This document shows positions 14,707 to 24,600 of a stretch of DNA of 54,644 nt, piece after piece; the stretch's first letter is position 1, and every line of letters starts with the position of its first letter. The notes under the pieces were generated by a model. The model was not told where the DNA came from, did no database searches, and saw only the letters and a list, made by a program, of their open reading frames with translations. The position numbers and the translations under genes were made by a program. This DNA comes from Candidatus Rokuibacteriota bacterium. Its GTDB lineage: Bacteria; JAUVQV01; DATDCY01. The stretch covers positions 1 through 54,644 of the forward strand of contig JANOHV010000076.1 in NCBI GenBank assembly GCA_031406795.1, in the 5' to 3' direction.

Positions 14707-16701
14707 CTACTTGATCTTGAAGCGGGCCAGTTCCGTCTTCAGCAGGTCCGCTTGTGCGGCGAGGATGTTCACCATCTGATCGAGGCGCTTGACCCCCGCG
14801 GCGTTGGTGTTCGAAATCTCCTGGATCGACCCGATCGACCTGACGACCAGATCGCTGCCCCGCGCCTCTTCGCGCGCGGCGTCGAGCACCTGCTGCGACA
14901 GGCGGGCGGACTCTTCGCTGGCGCGGCTGGTGAGCCGGATCCCCTTCGCCTGCTCCGCCATCGCCTTCTTCACCTGGTGCGCGAGTTCGCGCATCGACTC
15001 GGCCGCCTTCACGATCTGGGCGCCGCCGGCCGACTGCTCGCGCGTGGCGCGGGCGATCTCCTGGGACATCTCGCTGATGTTCTGCGAAGAGGCGGCGATC
15101 TGACGGATCCCCTTGTACTGCTCGGTCGTCGCCTGGGCGATCCCCCGCGAGGCGGCCGACGCCTTCTCCGAGTTCTCCGCCGCGCGCCGGATGGTTTCCC
15201 CGAGTTCCTCCACCGTGCGCACGCCTTCCTCGACCTTGAGGGTGCCGTTGTCCATCGCCTCGACCGCGTTCGTCGATTCCTTCTTGACGCTCGCGATCAG
15301 CTTGGTGATCTCCTTCGTCGACGAGGCGGTGCGCGCCGAGAGTTCGCGGATCTCCTCCGCGACCACGGCGAAACCGCGCCCGTGCTCGCCGGCCTGGGCG
15401 GCGAGAATGGCGGCATTGAGCGCCAGCAGATTGGTCTGGTCGTTGACCTCGTTGATCACCCCGAGGATGCTGCCGATTTCGTGCGACCGCGCCTCGAGAC
15501 TGCGGACCACCGTCGCGGCCTGGCCGACCGAGGAGCGAATCGCGACCATTCCCTCCGCCGTGCGTCGCAGAGCGGTCAATCCCTCCTCGCCCATCATGCG
15601 CGCGACCTCCCGGGTCAGCTCGTGCCCCTGGCCGGCATTGCGCTCGATTTCGCGGACGACGGAGTCGATTTCGGTGATCGAGGAGGAGGTGTTCGTGACC
15701 AGGTCGGCCAGCCGCCCGACGTTCTCGGCGACGTTGCGGACCGACAGGGTCATCTCGGTGACCGAGGAGGAGGTGCTTTCCACGGCCGCCGAGAGCCCCT
15801 CGGCGTTGCCCGCGACCTGCTCGACCGAGGCCGACATCTCGAGCATCGAGGAGGAGCTCTCGCCGGCGAGCGAGAAGAGATTCTCGACGCTCTGGACGAC
15901 GGACTTGATGCTGGCGTTCATCTGCTCGATCGACGAGGAGACCGTGGCGACGGCGTCGGTCTGTCCGGAGCCGCCCTCGGCGATCCGGTGCGAGACTTCG
16001 GCGATGTCGCGCGAGACGACCTCGAGGTCGCCGAACGCGGTGCGCACCTTTTCGAACATCGCCCGCAGGTTCGCCGTCATCAGGTCCAGCGCCCGCGCCA
16101 GGGTGCCGAATTCGTCATTCGAGGTGATCGCGATCGCGGCGGTCAGATCGCCGGCGGCGGTGACTTCGGCGTGGCGCACCAACTGGCCGAGCGGCCGGCT
16201 CACGAAGCGCACGACGAAGATGGACAGCATCGCCACGAGCCCGACCAGGGTCAGACACGAGCCGATCAGGAGGCGCGAGGTCAGCGCCGCGAGTTTGCCT
16301 TCGACACCGGCGGTGGCATAGTGGATAGTCACCTTGGCGATGGGTTTGGCCTCGTCCTTGATCTCGACGGTGTACGGGCGCATCGGCCGGGCGCCGGACG
16401 CCCCGGAGTCGCGCCGGTCCTTGAGACCCTCGCCGAACGCGACGCTGGCGTACAGCAGATTGGGGTCCTCGGACAGCCGCTTCTGCAGGGCGCCCTCGAT
16501 GGCCTTGTAGTCGAAATAAGCGATGGACTCCTTCGCCTCGTTGCCGATCGTGAACGCGAGGTTCTTCGCGCTGGCGTCGAACCAGCGGTAGGTCTCGGCG
16601 CGCAGGTCGCGGAAAGAGGCGACGAAGAACGCCCCGACGAGCAGGGCGCTCACCGTGAGCAGCCCGATGACCGCCAGGTTGATCTTGTAGATGAGCCTCA
16701 T
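14707..16701 (-). CDS. Methyl-accepting chemotaxis protein (2 TM, small periplasmic domain, HAMP, long signalling domain)
   Basis: [31 protein letters not shown] hairpin tip; [14 protein letters not shown]. Confidence 0.95.
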
Positions 16702-16750: not shown

Positions 16751-17617
16751 CTAGAACTTGAAGTCGAACGTCCTGGCGTTGATGCCCGCCTTTTCGAAAA
16801 TCTCGAACGTGTGGGCGAAATCCGCGCTCGTCGTCGCGATGAAGGCCTTGATCCCGAAGAGCTTCTTCACTTCCATGGCCTGGGCGCCGTTGTCGGACTC
16901 GATCTTGAGCAGCAGGCGCCTGATCTCCTCGCCGTGCTTGTCCGCGGCGGCGTTCGACATGATCAGCGTGTTGTTCGGGTTCTCGCCCTTGTCCTCGCCC
17001 ACGAGGGCGAGGCCCGGGAACTTGGCCGGGTCCCAGACCATGTTCTTCACGACGGCGTAATCGGCCGCGCCGCTCTGCACCGCGTTGATCGCGATCAGAT
17101 GGCTCGCCGCCGGGACCGGGGTGAAGACGTTCTCCGGCTTCTCGCCGGCGGGCAGCAAGCCGCGCACGAACGCCTCGCCCGAGGAGGCCAGCAGCGTGTA
17201 GGCGACCTTCTTGCCGCGGAAATCGCCGATCCCCGCGAACTGCTTGGTCCCCTCTTTCGCGATGATGAACGCCTTGTAGGTCGTCGCGCCGTTGGCGAGC
17301 ACCGGCCGCGCGATCGGCCTGGCGACTTCCTTCTTGATGAAGATCCCGGCGACGAACGAGCCCGAGAACATCCCCTCGACCTCGCCGCCCTGGAAGAGTT
17401 TGGCGGCTTCAGGGTAGTCCTTGGCCACGCGCAGCTGAATGTCGGCGATCCCGGGACTGCCGGCGCTGAGGTAGGCGGCGAGCGCGGCGTACTTCGGGCC
17501 TTCCTTCTTCGGGTCCTCGGAGGACATGATCACGAAATGCAGGGTGTCGGCGGCCAGCGTGGTCGACGCCAGGCCCAAGGTGAGAGCGAGGCAGAGCAGT
17601 GAGACAACCCTCTTCAT
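16751..17617 (-). CDS. PhnD/SsuA-like periplasmic substrate-binding protein (no ABC permease nearby)
   Basis: Signal peptide; [18 protein letters not shown] and [15 protein letters not shown] patterns. Confidence 0.75.
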
Positions 17618-17757: not shown

Positions 17758-18858
17758 CTAGGGAATCTGCGGGTACCCGACCGGGATCTCGGGCCCGGTG
17801 AGCCCCTCCACGAGGAACGTCCGCAGCGCCTCCTTCTCCTCAGCGGTCAGACCGAGCGGCCTGAGTTCGGTGTTCCCCTCGCCGCCGCCGCGGTCGACGA
17901 AGGCGATGACCTCCTCGAGCGTCGAGAAGATCCCGTTGTGCATGTAGGGCGCCGTGCGTCCGATTTCGCGCAGCGTCGGCGTGCGAAAGGCCTTCCAGTC
18001 CTTCCGCTCCTTGGTGACGAGAAATCTCCCGGGATCTTCGGCGAGGGTGCGGAAGTCCTCATAGCCGGAGACCTTGGCCACGAAACGCCGCGTCGCTGCC
18101 ACACGAGGGTCCCGCTCGAATTCCTGGCTCTCGGGGACATTCAGCGCGTGAAACCCGTCGTCGGCGAGGTTTCCCCCGGCGTGGCAGGTGCTGCACCGGG
18201 CCTTCCCGGTGAAGACCGCCAGGCCGGCGCGCGCGGCGCTCGAAAGCGCACTCTCGTCGCCGCCGAGATAGCGGTCCAGCGGCGCAGCGCGGCTGACGAT
18301 GGTGCGCTCGAATGCCGCGATCGCCATCGCGATCCGCTCACGCGTGATGTCCGGCGAACCAAACACGCTGGTGAACGCTGCGACGTATTCGGGAACCGAG
18401 CGCAGCTCCTCCTCGACGAAATCGAGGTTCTGGTTCATTTCAAAAGCCGACATCAGCGGGAACAGCGCCTGCTCCTCGAGGCTGGCCGCGCGCCCGTCGT
18501 GAAAGAGCCGCTTCTGATAAGCGACATTGACCAGCGTCTGAGAGTTCCGCCAGTTGCGGGTGGTCGGGTAGTTCAACGCGATCGCCTGGCCGTCGGCGAA
18601 TCCCTGTTCGGGAATGTGGCAGCTCGCGCAGCTCATCGTGCCGTCACCCGAGAGGCGCCGGTCGAAGAAGAGCGTCCGGCCGAGGTCGATCTTCTCGGGC
18701 GACTGCGGGTTGGACGCCGGGATCGGCACCTCCGGCAGCGGCTCGAGCCCGCCCGCGCCGGCAAATCCGGCGAGAAGCCCGAGCACGACACTCGACACTG
18801 CCAGGAGCCTGAGCCCGTGCAGTAGCTGGGCCGTTTTCGGCGCGATGCTACTTCGCAC
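17758..18858 (-). CDS. Diheme cytochrome c peroxidase / MauG superfamily protein (atypical)
   Basis: Signal peptide; LGRTLFFDRRLS, CASCH, CSTCH, DGRA..LEEQA, FRTPTLR..TAPYMHNG. Start overlaps the stop of the upstream DsbA-like gene. Confidence 0.92.
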   Translation of the reverse strand: MRSSIAPKTAQLLHGLRLLAVSSVVLGLLAGFAGAGGLEPLPEVPIPASNPQSPEKIDLGRTLFFDRRLSGDGTMSCASCHIPEQGFADGQAIALNYPTTRNWRNSQTLVNVAYQKRLFHDGRAASLEEQALFPLMSAFEMNQNLDFVEEELRSVPEYVAAFTSVFGSPDITRERIAMAIAAFERTIVSRAAPLDRYLGGDESALSSAARAGLAVFTGKARCSTCHAGGNLADDGFHALNVPESQEFERDPRVAATRRFVAKVSGYEDFRTLAEDPGRFLVTKERKDWKAFRTPTLREIGRTAPYMHNGIFSTLEEVIAFVDRGGGEGNTELRPLGLTAEEKEALRTFLVEGLTGPEIPVGYPQIP

Positions 18859-19450
18859 GGGCCAGTTCCTCCTCGATCACGACCTTGAGGTAGTCGAACT
18901 CGCGGTTGCCGACCACCTTGCGGCCGTTGATGAAGTACGTCGGGGTCTCGTACAGGTTAATCGACACCGCGAGCGCCTTGTCGCGTTCGAGCAGATCGTT
19001 GTGCTTCATGGCGTCGAGATCGGCCGCGAACCGCTTGATGTCCAGTCCGAGCTTCGCGGCCATCTGCACCAGGCCGGCCCGGTCGAGCTTCGCGCCGCGC
19101 TCCAGCAGCAGTTCGTGCATCTCCCAGTACCGGCCCTGATCGCCGGCGGCGAGGCTGGCTTCCGCGGCCAGGTGCGAGTAATCGCGGTATTTGTACGGCA
19201 TGTTCTTGATCACGAGGCGGATCCTCCCCTGGTAGGCCTCCAGCAGCTTCCTGACGGTCGGACCGGCCGCCTGGCAGTGCGGTCACTGGAAGTCGAGAAA
19301 CTCGAAGACCGTGACCGGGGCGTCGGCCGGCCCGGTGCTCGGCGAGTTCTCGAGCGGGATCTGGTAGCGCTTCTCCTCGCTCCCCTGCGCGAGCACCGCG
19401 CCGGGCAACGCGAGTGCAGCCACGAGTATTGTCCACGTGAACCATTTCAT
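18848..19450 (-). CDS. Periplasmic DsbA/DsbG-like thioredoxin-fold selenoprotein (Sec56, UPHC), 200 aa
   Basis: The ORF track splits it at an in-frame TGA (19283-19285). Read-through gives GPADAPVTVFEFLDFQ-U-PHC...TPTYFING, with a signal peptide and a GGGAG RBS. Confidence 0.92.
19253..19285 (-). promoter_or_regulatory. Sec UGA codon and SECIS-like hairpin of the DsbA-like gene
   Basis: TGA, then 11 nt, then a GGCGGCCGGTCCGACCGTC stem-loop with a GGUC apex, similar in spacing to the E. coli fdhF SECIS. Confidence 0.7.
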
Positions 19451-19568
19451 GGGGCTTCTCCCTTGATCGGGTTGGTTCCAACATGCCTCCGCCAATGTAC
19501 CACGAACGAAAACGGCGGGACGCCTGATACGGCGCCCCGCCGACTCTTTTCCGGCAGTAATATCAGCT

Positions 19569-19718: not shown

Positions 19719-20858
19719 TTAGTGCGCCTCGTCGTGGGACATGATGGGCAGGTACAGCACCGCCGCGCGGTAGGCAAACACGGCGAGCGAGACGAGCCCG
19801 ACGCTCAGCGCGATCTCGCTCAGCGCCGGGAAGTACCCGCCGGTGGCGCCGGTGGCCTGCGTCAGAAACGCCACGTTGAACCGGTTCAGGATCACGCCCG
19901 AGATCACGAGCACCTGCGACCAGAGGATCCCGTCCACGGACTTGCGCACCCCGGGGCTGAAGAGCAGGAGCATCGGGACGATGCCGAGGCCGACGACCTC
20001 GATCAGGAAGAGCGCGCTCGCCTTCCCCGACGAGGCGATCAAACCGAGGTTGCCGCGCGCCGCCAGGTCGATGAACCGCGCCCCGAGGTAGACCGCGAGC
20101 GCGATTGCGGTGCCGCGGGCCAGACCGTCGAGCAGCGGCAGCGGCTGCTCCATCTTGAAAGTCCGGTGGCTGACGATTGTCTCGAACGAGACCATCGCCA
20201 GGCCGACCGCGAACGCGCTGAGGTAGAACCAGTAGTTCATCAGCGGCGACCACCAGAGGTGCGAGAGCTTGTGCGGCATCAGCAGGAAGAGCCCGCCGAG
20301 CGAGTTCTGGTGCCCGAAGGAGAGGATGATGCCCGCGATGACCAGCGGCCAGAGCACCACCGGGTGGCGCATGAATTTCGCCGCCCCCGGCATTCCCAGC
20401 CCCTCGAAGAGGTTCGGGGAGAACTCCAGGAAGAGCACCGTCAGGTAGAGCATCACGCAGATCGCGACCTCGAAGAGCATCGAGTGCGGCTGCCACATGA
20501 TCATCGCGTGCCAGATCGTCCAGGGCTTGCCGATGTCGAGGAAGACCCCGGCGGTTACCAGGGCATAGCCGAGGAACGCCGTCAGAATCGCCGGACGGAC
20601 CACCGGCTTGTACTTTTTCCAGCCAAGGACGTAGGCCGCGAGCGTCGTCGTGAACCCCCCGGCGGCCAGCGCGACCCCGATCATGACGTCGAACGTGATC
20701 CACAGCCCCCAGGGGTACTCGTCGGAGAGGTTCGTGGTCGCACTCAGGCCGAACACGAGCCGGTAGATGGCCACCCCGATCCCGAGGATCGCGAGGAGCA
20801 GCGCGAGCGTACCGCCCCCGGACAACAGCTTCGCATCCCGCTTCCGTTCTCCGGCCAT
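19719..20858 (-). CDS. NrfD/HybB-family integral membrane subunit of formate dehydrogenase
   Basis: TNLSDEYPWGLWI.FD, AAGGF, DIGKPW, FEVAIC, HQNSLG, NRFNV; about 10 hydrophobic segments. Confidence 0.93.
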   Translation of the reverse strand: MAGERKRDAKLLSGGGTLALLLAILGIGVAIYRLVFGLSATTNLSDEYPWGLWITFDVMIGVALAAGGFTTTLAAYVLGWKKYKPVVRPAILTAFLGYALVTAGVFLDIGKPWTIWHAMIMWQPHSMLFEVAICVMLYLTVLFLEFSPNLFEGLGMPGAAKFMRHPVVLWPLVIAGIILSFGHQNSLGGLFLLMPHKLSHLWWSPLMNYWFYLSAFAVGLAMVSFETIVSHRTFKMEQPLPLLDGLARGTAIALAVYLGARFIDLAARGNLGLIASSGKASALFLIEVVGLGIVPMLLLFSPGVRKSVDGILWSQVLVISGVILNRFNVAFLTQATGATGGYFPALSEIALSVGLVSLAVFAYRAAVLYLPIMSHDEAH

Positions 20859-20859
20859 G

Positions 20860-21624
20860 CTACTCCCCTCCCTTCGGCCCGCGGTTGCGGACCCACGCCA
20901 GACCGCCGAGCACCGCCACGAAGCCCACGATCTCCATCGGGATCTTCGAGAGCGATGCCCACGTGTTGGGCGGCAGCGCCTGCATCGGCACCTTCGTGTT
21001 GAACCCCAGTTCGGCGAACGGCCGGTCGGCGATGTAGATCCACGCCGTGCCTCCGGCTTCGTTCTCGCCGTAGATGTGCTGCACGTACTTGCCGCCGGTC
21101 AGCCGCTTCTTCGCGACGGCCAGCAGCTCCTCGGCCTCCCCGAAGAGCAGCGCGCCGGTCGGGCAGGTCTTGACGCAGGCCGGCGGCAGGCCGTCCGCCT
21201 GCCGCTCGGCGCAGAAGGTGCACTTCCTGACCCACGGCTGCTGCGCCTTGCTCCACTCGTACTTCGGGATCTCGAAGGGGCAGGCCACCATGCAATAGCG
21301 GCAGCCGATGCACTTGTCGAAATCGTACGACACCGCGCCGCTCTCGGTCTTGACCAGGGCCCCGACCGGACAGGCCGAGGCGCACGCCGGGTCCTTGCAG
21401 TGCAGGCACTGCTCCTTGACGAAGTTCCAGACCGGCATGCCGCCCGCCTCGCCCTCCTGGAAGCGGATCTTGGTGTAGCAGGTCTCGCTCATCGACGGCG
21501 GGTTCTCCAACGACCCCGAAATGACGGTCCTGACGACCGACATCTCGTTCCAGGACTTGCACGCCACCTGGCAGCCGCGGCAGCCGATGCAGCGCGTCAG
21601 ATCGACCAGTACGCTCTTTGGCAT
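20860..21624 (-). CDS. fdnH: Formate dehydrogenase iron-sulfur subunit (4x[4Fe-4S], C-terminal TM anchor)
   Basis: CIGCRGCQVAC, CLHCKDPACASAC, CIGCRYCMVAC, KCTFC...PACVKTC. Confidence 0.93.
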   Translation of the reverse strand: MPKSVLVDLTRCIGCRGCQVACKSWNEMSVVRTVISGSLENPPSMSETCYTKIRFQEGEAGGMPVWNFVKEQCLHCKDPACASACPVGALVKTESGAVSYDFDKCIGCRYCMVACPFEIPKYEWSKAQQPWVRKCTFCAERQADGLPPACVKTCPTGALLFGEAEELLAVAKKRLTGGKYVQHIYGENEAGGTAWIYIADRPFAELGFNTKVPMQALPPNTWASLSKIPMEIVGFVAVLGGLAWVRNRGPKGGE

Positions 21625-21637
21625 CTCGCTGCCCCCC

Positions 21638-24600
21638 CTAAACCTTCTCGACGTTGCACATGAAGGCCTTCGTCTCGGGAATCATCGTGTTGGCGTCGCC
21701 GATGGTCGGCGTCAGCAGGTTGGTGGTGTCGCCGCCGCTGCCGTCCGCCGGCATGTGCCAGCCGAAGCACCACGGCATGCCGACCTGGTGCACGGTCGCG
21801 CCCATCGCCTTGAACGGCCTGAACCGCCCGGTCACGACGGCCCTGCACATCACCTCGCCGCGGGCCGAGGAGACCTTGAGCTTGTCGCCGCTCTTGATCC
21901 CCTTCTCGGCCGCCAGTTCGCGGCTGAGCTCGAGGAAGTTGGACGGCACGGCCTCGAGCAGCCAGGGCGTGTTGCGCGTCATCACCCCGGTCTGCCAGTG
22001 CTCGGTCACGCGGTAGGTCGTGGCGACGAACGGGAAGCGCGTGCTGCAGGACTCGAAGACGTCCTCGGCGTTGCTCTTGGACGCGTCGGTGAAGAAGAGC
22101 TTCGCGGTCGGGTTGATCCGGTGGGACTTCGACATCGGGTTTTCCTGGAACGGGCACTCGAGCGGCTCGTAGTGCTCGGGGAACGGCCCGTCGGCGAGCG
22201 AGTCGTTGCCGAAGATGTTCGCGACGCCGTTCTTCTTCATGATGAACGGCAGGCGCCCGTCAGGGTTGACCTTCCCGTCGGGTGTCTTCAGCGGCGGGTA
22301 GCCGCCGTCGACGACGTCGCCGGCCCACTTGAACAGCGGCGCCCCGGTGGTCGGGTTCTTCTTCTGCTCCTTGGTGGCCGGGTCCACGTCCGGCACCCAC
22401 TTGAGCAGCGCCCGCTTGGCGTCCCAGGGCTTGCCGTACTCGTCGACCGAGGCGCGGTTATAGACGATGCGGCGGTTCACCGGCCAGCTCCACGACCAGT
22501 TCGGGTACAGCCCGAGACCGGTCGGATCCTCCTTGCCGCGGCGGGCCATCCGGTTGCCGGTCTTCGGGTCGAGCGCCACGCCGTCCTTCAGCGCCGGGCC
22601 GCCGTAGGAGCCGCAGTAGATCCACGCGCCGCAGGAGGTCGTGCCGTCGGCCTGCAGCGTCGGGAACGAGGCGACCAGCTGCCCCTTCTTCCAGGTGCTG
22701 GTCACGGCCTTGGTCTTCGGGTCGAGGATCTCCTTGTCGGCGAGCCAGTAGCCGTTGATCTCGCGCGCCACGACGTGCATGTCCACCTTCGCGCCGTAGT
22801 TCCAGGTGGTCTTGAGGACCGGGTCCGGGAAGGCCCCGCCCTCCTTCGCGTACAGCTCGCGGACCTTCAACGCCAGTTCGTTGATGATCTCGCCGTCGGG
22901 GCGCGCCTCCCCGGGGGCCTCGACCGCCTTGTAGCGCCACTGGGCCCAGCGCCCCGAGTTCGAGATGCTCCCCTCCTTCTCGACCGACGAGGCGCAGGGG
23001 AGCAGGAAAACCTCGGTCTTCACGTCGGCCGGGATCACGCCCGGGCCGCGCCAGAACGAGCCGGTCTCGTTGTCGAAGAGGTTGACGTTGACCATCCAGT
23101 CCAGCTTCGCGAGCGCCTTGCGGACCTTGCCGGCGTTCGCCCCGGAGCAGGCCGGGTTCTGCCCCCAGGCGAAGAAGCCCTGGTATGTGCCCTTGAGCAT
23201 CTCGTTGAACAGCACGAGCCAGGAGGCGTTCTGCCCGTCGTTGAGCTTCGGCAGCCACTGGTAGCCGAACTCGTTGTCCGGCGTCGCGTTGTCGCCGAAG
23301 ATCGCCTTGAGGTAGCTGACGAAGTATTTGTTCGAGTTCGAGGGCCAGTTCGCGCTCTGCGGCTCTTTGATCTCGGCCGCGTACCCCTTCACGTAGGCCT
23401 CGAGCGTGTCCTTCGCGGCGACGGGAACCGGCAGGTAGCTCGGCAGGATGTGGAAGAGCAGCCCGTAGTCGGTCGAGCCCTGCACGTTGCTCTCGCCGCG
23501 CAGCGCGTTGATGCCGCCGCCGGCCATGCCCATGTTGCCCAGCAGCTGCTGGATGATCGACATCGCGAGTATGTTCTGGGTCCCGACCGTGTGCTGCGTC
23601 CAGCCCATCGCGTACATCGAGGTGCCGACCTTGTCCGGCGCGTGCGTCGAGGAGTAGGTCTCGTAGACCTTCAGCAGGTCCGCCTTCGGCGTGCCGGTGA
23701 TCGAGGACACGGTGTCCAGGTCGTAGCGGCTGTAGTGCTTCTTCAGCAGCTGCATGACGCACATCGGGTGCTGGAACGTCGGGTCTTTCTTGATCACCCC
23801 GTCCGCCCCGACCTCGAACGCCCAGGCCGCCTTGTCGTACTTGCGCGCCGCCGCATCGTAGCCGGAGAAGATGCCGTCGAGCTCGCCGGGCATCTTGAAG
23901 TCCTTGTTCACGATGAACGACGCGTTCGTGTAGAGCCGGACGTAGTCCTTCTGGATCAGGTCCTTCTGCAGGATGTAGTTGATCATCCCGCCGAGGAAGG
24001 GGATGTCGGAGCCCGAGCGCAGCGACGCGTAGACGTCCGCCATCTTCGAGGTCTTCGTGTAGCGCGGGTCCACGTGGATCAGCTTCGCGCCCTTATCCTT
24101 GGCCTCCATTACCCACTTGAAGGAGATCGGATGGTTTTCCGCCGCGTTGCTCCCCATGATCAGGATGACGTCGGCGTTCTTCAGGTCGATCCAGTGGTTC
24201 GTCATGCACCCGCGACCGTACGACTCTGCCAGAGCCGCCACCGTTGCGGAGTGTCATATCCTGGCCTGGTGTTCGATGGCGACCAGGCCGAGCGAACGCA
24301 GCCACTTCTGGTAGAGGTGGCACTCCTCGTTGTCCAGCGCCGCGGAGCCGAGGCTCGCGAGCGCGTTGGTGCGGTTCACCGTCTGCCCCTTGTCGTTCTT
24401 CTCGACGAACGAGGCGTCGCGGGCCTTCTTGACGCGCTTGGCGATCTCGTCGAGCGCCCACGACCACTCGACGTCCTTCCACTCGGACGCGCCCGGGGCG
24501 CGGTACCTGGGCTTCATCAGGCGCGTCGGGTTGTTGACCAGGCCCATCACCGAGGCGCCCTTGGGGCAGAGGGACCCCTGGTTGATCGGGTGCTCCGGAT

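Follow-up and report, generated by a model that had tools for sequence, protein, structure and literature searches.

DsbA-like proteins with a UxxC motif, in which selenocysteine (Sec, U) takes the first position of the CxxC pair, have been catalogued as predicted selenoproteins since 2005-2006 ('DsbA-like protein form 1', PF01323) and are covered again in a 2026 review (PMC1088965, PMC1794560, PMC13188914). In the parts of these sources considered here, they are given neither a function nor a partner. We analyzed a gene of this kind, designated Sec-DsbA, in a stretch of 54,644 nucleotides (the window; contig JANOHV010000076.1 of assembly GCA_031406795.1, Candidatus Rokuibacteriota bacterium), where it overlaps a gene for an exported dihaem protein of the bacterial cytochrome c peroxidase (bCcP)/MauG family and lies downstream of formate dehydrogenase (FDH) genes. 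Sec-DsbA shares with the catalogued proteins the predicted fold, the export, Sec as first residue of the CxxC motif and a selenocysteine insertion sequence (SECIS) directly downstream, but it belongs to a clade in which the motif is always U-P-H-C, a PYKYRD loop is present and the dihaem neighbour is obligate; the catalogued proteins were compared by description only. The selenoprotein itself is thus of the catalogued kind, while the pairing and the FDH linkage are new here. The sections of the 2026 review considered (PMC13188914) do not contain the word 'MauG' and contain 'peroxidase' three times, in no case for a dihaem enzyme, and 'cytochrome c peroxidase' does not occur in the 2006 paper (PMC1794560). 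In the literature searched, which left supplements and most subscription journals outside, we found no description of the dihaem pairing, of residence in FDH operons or of a bCcP clade without Met and Tyr; a prior description of the module elsewhere is possible.

Several other described systems resemble parts of the locus. Canonical bCcPs such as G. sulfurreducens CcpA (3hq6) and the N. europaea enzyme (1iqc) share with the dihaem protein the two CxxCH motifs, the Gln/Pro/Glu pocket and the RN motif. Unlike these enzymes, the dihaem protein has no E-haem Met and no distal His loop, its Trp is mostly replaced in the family, and the partner encoded beside it is a selenoprotein instead of a cytochrome or cupredoxin. 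MauG modifies pre-methylamine dehydrogenase and MbnH modifies MbnP. The dihaem gene is like those of MauG and MbnH in family and in having a candidate protein substrate encoded nearby, and its C-terminus is most MbnH-like; however, their partners are a quinoprotein precursor or a copper protein, whereas here the partner is a redox-active thioredoxin-fold selenoprotein. The DsbA-DsbB system also combines a periplasmic DsbA fold with an adjoining gene for a dedicated redox partner, but this partner is a quinone-linked membrane protein and not a soluble haem enzyme. In the FdhAB enzyme of D. vulgaris, a disulfide between C845 and C872 toggles between the active and an O2-protected state (PMC13397495 section 4.3; bioRxiv 10.1101/2024.01.10.571421), and the parts of these two sources considered here name no in vivo writer or eraser of this disulfide. 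The FdhA linked to the module is a close homologue with both Cys kept; a link between the module and a disulfide switch of the D. vulgaris type is a conjecture of ours.

The 70-aa ORF (open reading frame; 19283-19495) and the 121-aa ORF (18848-19213) that make up the Sec-DsbA gene lie in one frame on the minus strand, and the only stop between them is the TGA at 19283-19285 (Table 1). Reading through this TGA as U from the ATG at 19450 gives a product of 200 aa, which confirmed the hidden gene proposed in the preliminary description. The product has a Sec-type signal peptide (residues 1-22), the redox motif U56-P-H-C59 in the context EFLDFQ-U-PHC, a cis-Pro loop at T169-P170 (ETPTYFING) and a Tyr-rich PYKYRD loop (residues 85-90) that is invariant in the clade. 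Judged against the curated cut-offs, which were used for all Pfam and NCBIfam profiles, the matches to Thioredoxin_4 (5e-24) and DSBA (1.7e-20) were both significant, and the motif, the cis-Pro loop and the predicted export signal are those of the DsbA family (PF01323/PF13462). The best NCBIfam match was NF041057 (2e-24), the Rcas_1661 or 'DsbG-like' family, which also comprises thioredoxin-fold proteins with Sec or Cys. With 86.5 bits against a cut-off of 190 and no lipobox Cys in the signal peptide, Sec-DsbA was not assigned to these (seleno)lipoproteins.

Table 1. Position of the Sec-DsbA/dihaem gene pair and of the neighbouring features in the window.
Feature	Position	Strand	Basis or remark
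Sec-DsbA gene	18848..19450	-	200 codons and TAG stop; ORF reading and Pfam
UGA selenocysteine codon 56	19283..19285	-	TGA aligned in orthologues, Cys in distant homologues
SECIS hairpin	19253..19271	-	GGCGG-C-CG-[GUC]-CG-A-CCGUC; synonymous-site conservation and covariation
Atypical dihaem bCcP/MauG-family gene	17758..18858	-	366 aa; PF03150 CCP_MauG, 1.6e-51
Terminator-like hairpin between nrfD-like and Sec-DsbA genes	19513..19542	-	12 pairs, 11 of them G-C, then TTTTCGTT
NrfD-like FDH membrane subunit	19719..20858	-	PF03916, 3.3e-17
FdhB, 4Fe-4S subunit	20860..21624	-	Fer4_11, 4.7e-25
FdhA, Tat-exported Sec (U185) FDH alpha subunit, 1056 aa	21638..24808	-	
Periplasmic binding protein (Phosphonate-bd)	16751..17617	-	downstream of the pair
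Methyl-accepting chemotaxis protein (MCP) gene	14707..16701	-	downstream of the pair

Scanning of genomes with one genome per species gave 78 DsbA-like loci: 19 best ones with 50-61% identity and 59 more distant ones with at most 44%. A metagenome scan with the dihaem protein as query gave 80 loci. The aligned codon was TGA in all 19 closest genome loci, which all read Q-U-P-H-C and are labelled Nitrospirota/Thermodesulfovibrionia, Desulfobulbaceae, Ca. Deferrimicrobium and others, and in each of the 68 metagenome loci that cover it; neither Cys nor Ser was found there. The 59 distant genome loci, in contrast, had Cys in 56 cases and TGA in three. Within a first set of 40 related genomes, TGA was present in the same-genus orthologues of G003 and G001 and also in distant homologues of G011 (two copies), G004 and G005, the others having C-P-x-C. 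The coding sequence is conserved in frame on both sides of the UGA. The source genome (completeness 99.9%) carries selA, selB, selD and tRNA-Sec, the latter not within the window, and contigs of two further runs from one study matched the stretch without difference, including the TGA. The preliminary description had named the codon in homologues, the Sec machinery and the reads at the TGA as checks on its proposal, and each came out in favour of Sec.

The nucleotides downstream of the UGA provide, by comparison of orthologues, what we consider the strongest evidence for a selenoprotein. In 87 distinct orthologous sequences, GGCGGCCGGUCCGACCGUC is near-invariant at this place while adjacent synonymous sites vary freely: the third-codon-position entropy is 0-0.16 bit at +17..+29 versus 0.7-1.8 bit outside. 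The hairpin, which in the window starts 11 nt past the UGA and has nine pairs and a GUC loop, is paired in 86.5% of the cells of this alignment compared to 21-50% with a slid partner, and two-sided changes occur at the pairs 27-45 (GC/UA), 30-42 (GC/AU) and 32-40 (CG/UA). Folding of the 86 nt after the UGA as a single sequence gave a structure no better than those of shuffled sequences (z +1.29), and Rfam at a permissive threshold showed no family match in the window positions 19100-19400. We accept the hairpin as real because the comparison supports it, not the single-sequence fold; the SECIS-like element postulated 11 nt after the TGA was thereby corroborated by conservation and covariation. 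Together, these data identify Sec-DsbA as a genuine selenoprotein that is predicted to be made by SECIS-directed read-through of the UGA.

In public databases, the whole family is mis-annotated as truncated proteins of 118-144 residues. Among the 120 best database matches, 115 have a length of 118-170 aa, and all seven short entries that were fetched begin downstream of the Sec position. The five remaining ones (P0002-P0005, P0009; 56-61% identical) are full-length and have Ser in place of Sec (DFQ-S-P-x-C). Their signal peptides are like that of the window's protein, and the PYKYRD loop is lost. A search for such Ser variants across their phylum (six genomes) revealed Sec forms only. A second Sec-DsbA paralogue with a U-P-L-C motif is arranged in tandem with the U-P-H-C copy in L041 and L183 and stands alone beside the dihaem gene in L166 and L176; its hairpin has AGUUCG where the U-P-H-C copy has GGUCCG. 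In G001, a genome of the same genus (L009/L021), the orthologous Sec-DsbA gene is frameshifted near residue 124/125 and was found as two tblastn segments in different frames, which points to an indel from assembly or to a copy in decay. The selD gene of the source genome (G000 contig C234:8400-9320, L003) contains an in-frame TGA, so that the selenophosphate synthetase is itself a selenoprotein.

An orthologue of the dihaem gene (59-70% identity) is located directly downstream of Sec-DsbA in 18 of the 19 closest genome loci, and the contig of the 19th ends there. Conversely, a DsbA orthologue precedes the dihaem gene in 73 of the 80 metagenome loci. Of the seven others, five extend for less than 250 nt upstream, one breaks off within a MazEF insertion found between both genes in two sister loci, and L129 is either a real exception or a chimeric contig. 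The junctions are short or overlapping, with a median gap of 66 nt between the aligned ends. In the window, the TAG stop of Sec-DsbA (18848-18850) falls 8 nt inside the dihaem gene, whose GTG start at 18858 is preceded by GAGGAGG; the overlap noticed initially between the DsbA stop and the start of an exported protein with two CxxCH motifs thus amounts to 11 nt. The pair spans several phyla and is kept in four contexts, namely with cytochrome b-type FDH genes, with nrfD-type FDH genes, between acs and fdhE, and as a stand-alone pair. This distribution across genomes and metagenomes shows that the two genes form a co-inherited and dedicated module, as had been surmised from the window. A lack of conserved linkage in related genomes, which the preliminary description had listed as a refuting outcome, did not occur.

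Toxin-antitoxin genes (MazE/MazF or PIN) are inserted between Sec-DsbA and the dihaem gene in L134, L138, L139 and L140, with the pair retained. In run X4, a metatranscriptome library of another study, contigs with about 95% identity cover the window positions 17778-19230, corresponding to the 3' part of the DsbA gene, without the UGA, and to most of the dihaem gene. Expression of the pair in a close relative is weakly suggested by this, and we make no claim on transcription because contigs from RNA libraries may include DNA.

The dihaem protein has a predicted signal peptide and the haem-binding motifs CASCH (77-81) and CSTCH (222-226), and it is the only product of a CCP_MauG gene in the genome. 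Compared with solved structures over the full length, it scored highest with canonical bCcPs (172 bits), followed by MbnH (137) and MauG (61-63), whereas the best match of the C-terminal 82 residues was MbnH (6e1c). The best NCBIfam matches were MauG (TIGR03791, 241.8 bits against a cut-off of 443.85) and MbnH (TIGR04039, 217.5 bits against 362.85). Across 20 module-linked orthologues, neither the two CxxCH motifs nor the peroxidatic residues Q130, P134 and E140 vary, and the RN motif of bCcPs is kept. At the E-haem ligand position, the window has V321 and the family V, F, L or Y, with Y in two of 20 members. V321 corresponds in the alignments to the Met in AVAVMG of 3hq6, to the Y in DIYSEGG of MbnH and, by ungapped coordinates, to MauG residue 294, which we take to be Tyr294, the E-haem ligand; a ligand from elsewhere in the protein is possible. 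The position of the inter-haem Trp, defined by alignment to the W of FWDGR, is occupied by H120 in the window; alignment A3 shows H, W, Y, R or S there, and in A5 and A7 no fewer than 90% of the sequences have H. W103, W288 and the motif PYMHNG are clade-specific invariants. The residue at position 237, either His or Tyr, might, as a guess, provide the E-haem ligand, and M306 would be another option.

According to the part of PMC11892367 considered here, canonical bCcPs have a His-Met E haem and MauG-type enzymes a His-Tyr E haem, and both types strongly conserve the inter-haem Trp. By these features the clade, as far as alignments can tell, fits neither type. A canonical bCcP was rejected since PF03150 and the two CxxCH motifs are accompanied neither by a His-Met E haem nor by the inter-haem Trp, and a MauG-type enzyme since the His-Tyr E haem and the Trp are absent and both NCBIfam scores are below their cut-offs. 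The label 'CcpA-type peroxidase' used in the preliminary description is too specific because the E-haem Met of canonical bCcPs is absent. The alignments instead place the predicted dihaem protein in a distinct branch of the bCcP/MauG family, and the lack of an E-haem Met or Tyr together with the replaced inter-haem Trp fits an altered route of electron entry.

For the wider neighbourhood, all ORFs of 99 loci were grouped and the clusters annotated. The module occurs in the architectures fdhA(Sec)-fdhB-cytochrome b-[pair]-fdhE(-mobB-moeA-moeA), fdhA-fdhB-nrfD-[pair] followed by CMD/fdhD/moeA or unrelated genes, and acetyl-CoA synthetase-[pair]-fdhE, and as a stand-alone pair among unrelated genes (Deferrimicrobium-type). 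A Desulfoprunum MAG (L044) has the complete fdhA-fdhB-cytb-pair-fdhE cluster, and a dihaem orthologue is recorded from Desulfoprunum benzoelyticum (P0167). Of 58 loci with 1 kb or more of sequence upstream, 40 have an FDH subunit gene directly before the pair; of 59 loci with 1 kb or more downstream, 29 have fdhE, fdhD, moeA or mobB there; and of 41 loci with both flanks, 34 have one or more FDH-related neighbours. These counts are only descriptive because the loci are related to one another. The association extends over several phyla and to FDHs with either kind of membrane subunit. By gene order, the module is most often located between the structural genes (fdhA-fdhB-cytb/nrfD) and the maturation genes (fdhE, fdhD, moeA, mobB) of a periplasmic Sec-FDH. 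The FdhA of the window, in agreement with the earlier assumption that the FDH upstream on the same strand is a selenoprotein, contains U185. It is closest to the tungsten FdhAB enzymes of D. vulgaris and D. gigas (1216-1222 bits; 1216.7 to 6sdr), and with its Tat signal, active-site Sec and proximity to solved structures it belongs to the FdhAB/FdnG type; the genome has one FdhA of the FdhAB type. Both Cys equivalent to D. vulgaris C845 and C872 are kept in all 13 module-linked FdhA proteins analyzed (the window and 12 others). For the D. vulgaris enzyme, reported Km values are about 17 uM formate and, in the high-Km resting state, about 2.5 mM.

What the two proteins might do together can be proposed only from these comparisons. 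Tentatively, and with somewhat less than an even chance of being right, we favour peroxide-driven oxidation of the selenol/thiol pair of Sec-DsbA by the dihaem enzyme, followed by recycling or disulfide transfer. H2O2 would oxidise the peroxidatic haem, whose Gln/Pro/Glu pocket is intact, and the enzyme would regain two electrons from the Sec-DsbA selenol/thiol, with no cytochrome or cupredoxin as donor and with a selenenylsulfide as the product. One-electron steps are tolerated by selenium, which is also resistant to over-oxidation. The oxidised form of Sec-DsbA could then be re-reduced by a periplasmic reducing pathway, for which CcdA/DsbD homologues are present, and the net effect would be a selenol-fed peroxidase that guards the periplasm and the oxygen-sensitive FDH. 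Alternatively, it could hand its disulfide to a client, the obvious candidate being the surface Cys pair of FdhA. The genome contains four CcdA/DsbD-type genes and, on G000 contig C103:109718-110697 (L027, L197), a DsbB gene directly upstream of a DsbA-like paralogue with a CxxC motif (P-A-C-E-T-C), which likely form the general disulfide-forming pair of the organism. The existence of this separate pair and of the CcdA/DsbD homologues makes a specialised role of Sec-DsbA plausible. Contact or electron flow between the two proteins and a supply of electrons by FDH are proposals only.

Several observations weigh against peroxide-driven oxidation of Sec-DsbA with FDH as beneficiary. An E haem without Met or Tyr might serve a chemistry other than peroxide reduction, and MauG-type relatives act on partners encoded nearby, which favours a modifying enzyme. 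The enzymes of D. vulgaris and D. gigas have the FdhA Cys pair as well, so that its conservation is permissive and not specific; to our knowledge, neither organism has the DsbA-dihaem module. The terminator-like hairpin at 19513-19542 (z -5.24; none of 200 shuffled sequences folds as well) parts the FDH genes from the pair, which may therefore be transcribed separately in the window organism. Furthermore, an FdhA-like gene was found in only two of five genomes with a stand-alone pair, all of uncertain completeness; FDH cannot be the sole client, since the other three gave no FdhA match. Of the initial suggestion that the module draws electrons from the Sec-FDH upstream, the genomic link was thus upheld and extended beyond this genome by the 40 of 58 loci, whereas a simple feeding by FDH is disfavoured by the hairpin, by the pairs located away from FDH genes and by the three genomes without an FdhA match.

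A maturation reaction of the MauG type, in which the dihaem enzyme would use H2O2 to introduce a cross-link or to oxidise a residue, either in Sec-DsbA or in another protein, e.g., FDH, seems rather unlikely to us but has several points in its favour. The best NCBIfam matches are MauG and MbnH, although below their cut-offs, and MbnH leads in the C-terminal 82 residues. Sec-DsbA contains an invariant Tyr-rich loop that is lost in the Ser variants, and the module sits among FDH maturation genes. Oxidation of a partner protein with H2O2 is typical of MauG-type enzymes according to the part of PMC11892367 considered. However, their His-Tyr ligation is not conserved (V321 in the window; F, V, L or Y across the clade), another residue takes the place of the inter-haem Trp, and the full-length scores favour canonical bCcPs. 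In addition, Sec is retained in 87 of 87 orthologous loci covering the codon, which argues that the redox centre itself is used.

The preferred oxidation of Sec-DsbA by peroxide can also be extended to a peroxide sensor-actuator for the periplasmic CO2 reductase/FDH, an improbable elaboration in our estimate: the open E haem would be met by the selenolate (transiently His/Sec-ligated, inner-sphere electron transfer), the dihaem enzyme oxidised by H2O2, and the resulting selenenylsulfide would write the FdhA disulfide and thereby convert the enzyme to the O2-protected state. If true, it would name the partner of the FdhA switch and give a DsbA-like selenoprotein its first physiological role.

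A role of Sec-DsbA as a biogenesis helper that folds or assembles the dihaem protein or the exported FDH, with no peroxide cycle between both proteins, is likewise improbable. It could, for example, keep the CxxCH thiols reduced or set a structural disulfide, and the tight coupling of the genes, the fdhE and fdhD neighbours and the mau cluster, where a thioredoxin-like MauD is encoded beside MauG, would be in line with this. Yet the haem motifs are of the ordinary CxxCH kind, which the general system serves, the apocytochrome reductases known so far resemble TlpA/ResA and not DsbA, and a DsbB-DsbA pair and CcdA homologues exist in the genome anyway. Moreover, Sec would be an expensive choice for a housekeeping chaperone, and still no module has exchanged it for Cys.

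That the two genes are mere neighbours with unrelated functions is very improbable. In a first test with the 40 relatives, a dihaem gene within 1.5 kb was found only at same-genus loci among 21 DsbA-like loci, and none of the 59 distant DsbA loci of the genome scan has a dihaem gene, as mere neighbourhood would predict. The first test was misleading, however, because the other matches (at most 38% identity) were not orthologues, and the adjacency survives across phyla and four contexts with short or overlapping junctions and even after toxin-antitoxin insertions (L134, L138, L140). A TGA that acts as a true stop, or that stems from a pseudogene lesion or an assembly error, as the truncated public gene calls could suggest, has a negligible probability given that 87 distinct sequences share the codon with in-frame conservation of both flanks and of the SECIS hairpin, no part of the Sec machinery is missing and the contigs of two further runs are identical.

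For two decades, catalogues have carried DsbA-like selenoproteins with neither function nor partner. With a fixed partner and a preferred genomic home, the function of one clade is now testable. The dihaem protein would add a third type of E-haem ligation beside His-Met in bCcPs and His-Tyr in MauG-type enzymes, which bears on the tuning of high-valent haems. Periplasmic W/Mo-Sec FDHs include the best biological catalysts of CO2 reduction, and their oxygen tolerance depends on a surface disulfide, for which a peroxide-linked selenol oxidoreductase encoded inside FDH operons is a concrete candidate redox partner in vivo.

Compared to the D. vulgaris and D. gigas enzymes, the FdhA of the window has an insertion of about 40 residues before the first disulfide Cys (residues ~810-860, about 22230-22380 on the minus strand); module-linked FdhA genes of the Desulfobulbaceae type are shorter and probably lack it. 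Eight loci (L131, L143, L146, L181, L182, L185, L187, L190), all nrfD-type FDH clusters, contain a CMD-family gene of about 105 aa between the dihaem gene and fdhD on the same strand as the pair; the encoded, cytoplasmic protein has no signal peptide and no Cys and was rejected as a periplasmic third component. Genes for the binding protein and the MCP trail the pair in L117, L118, L120, L121 and L127, and that for the binding protein alone in L126. This arrangement is confined to close relatives and absent from the other clades, and the binding-protein gene probably lies outside the module.

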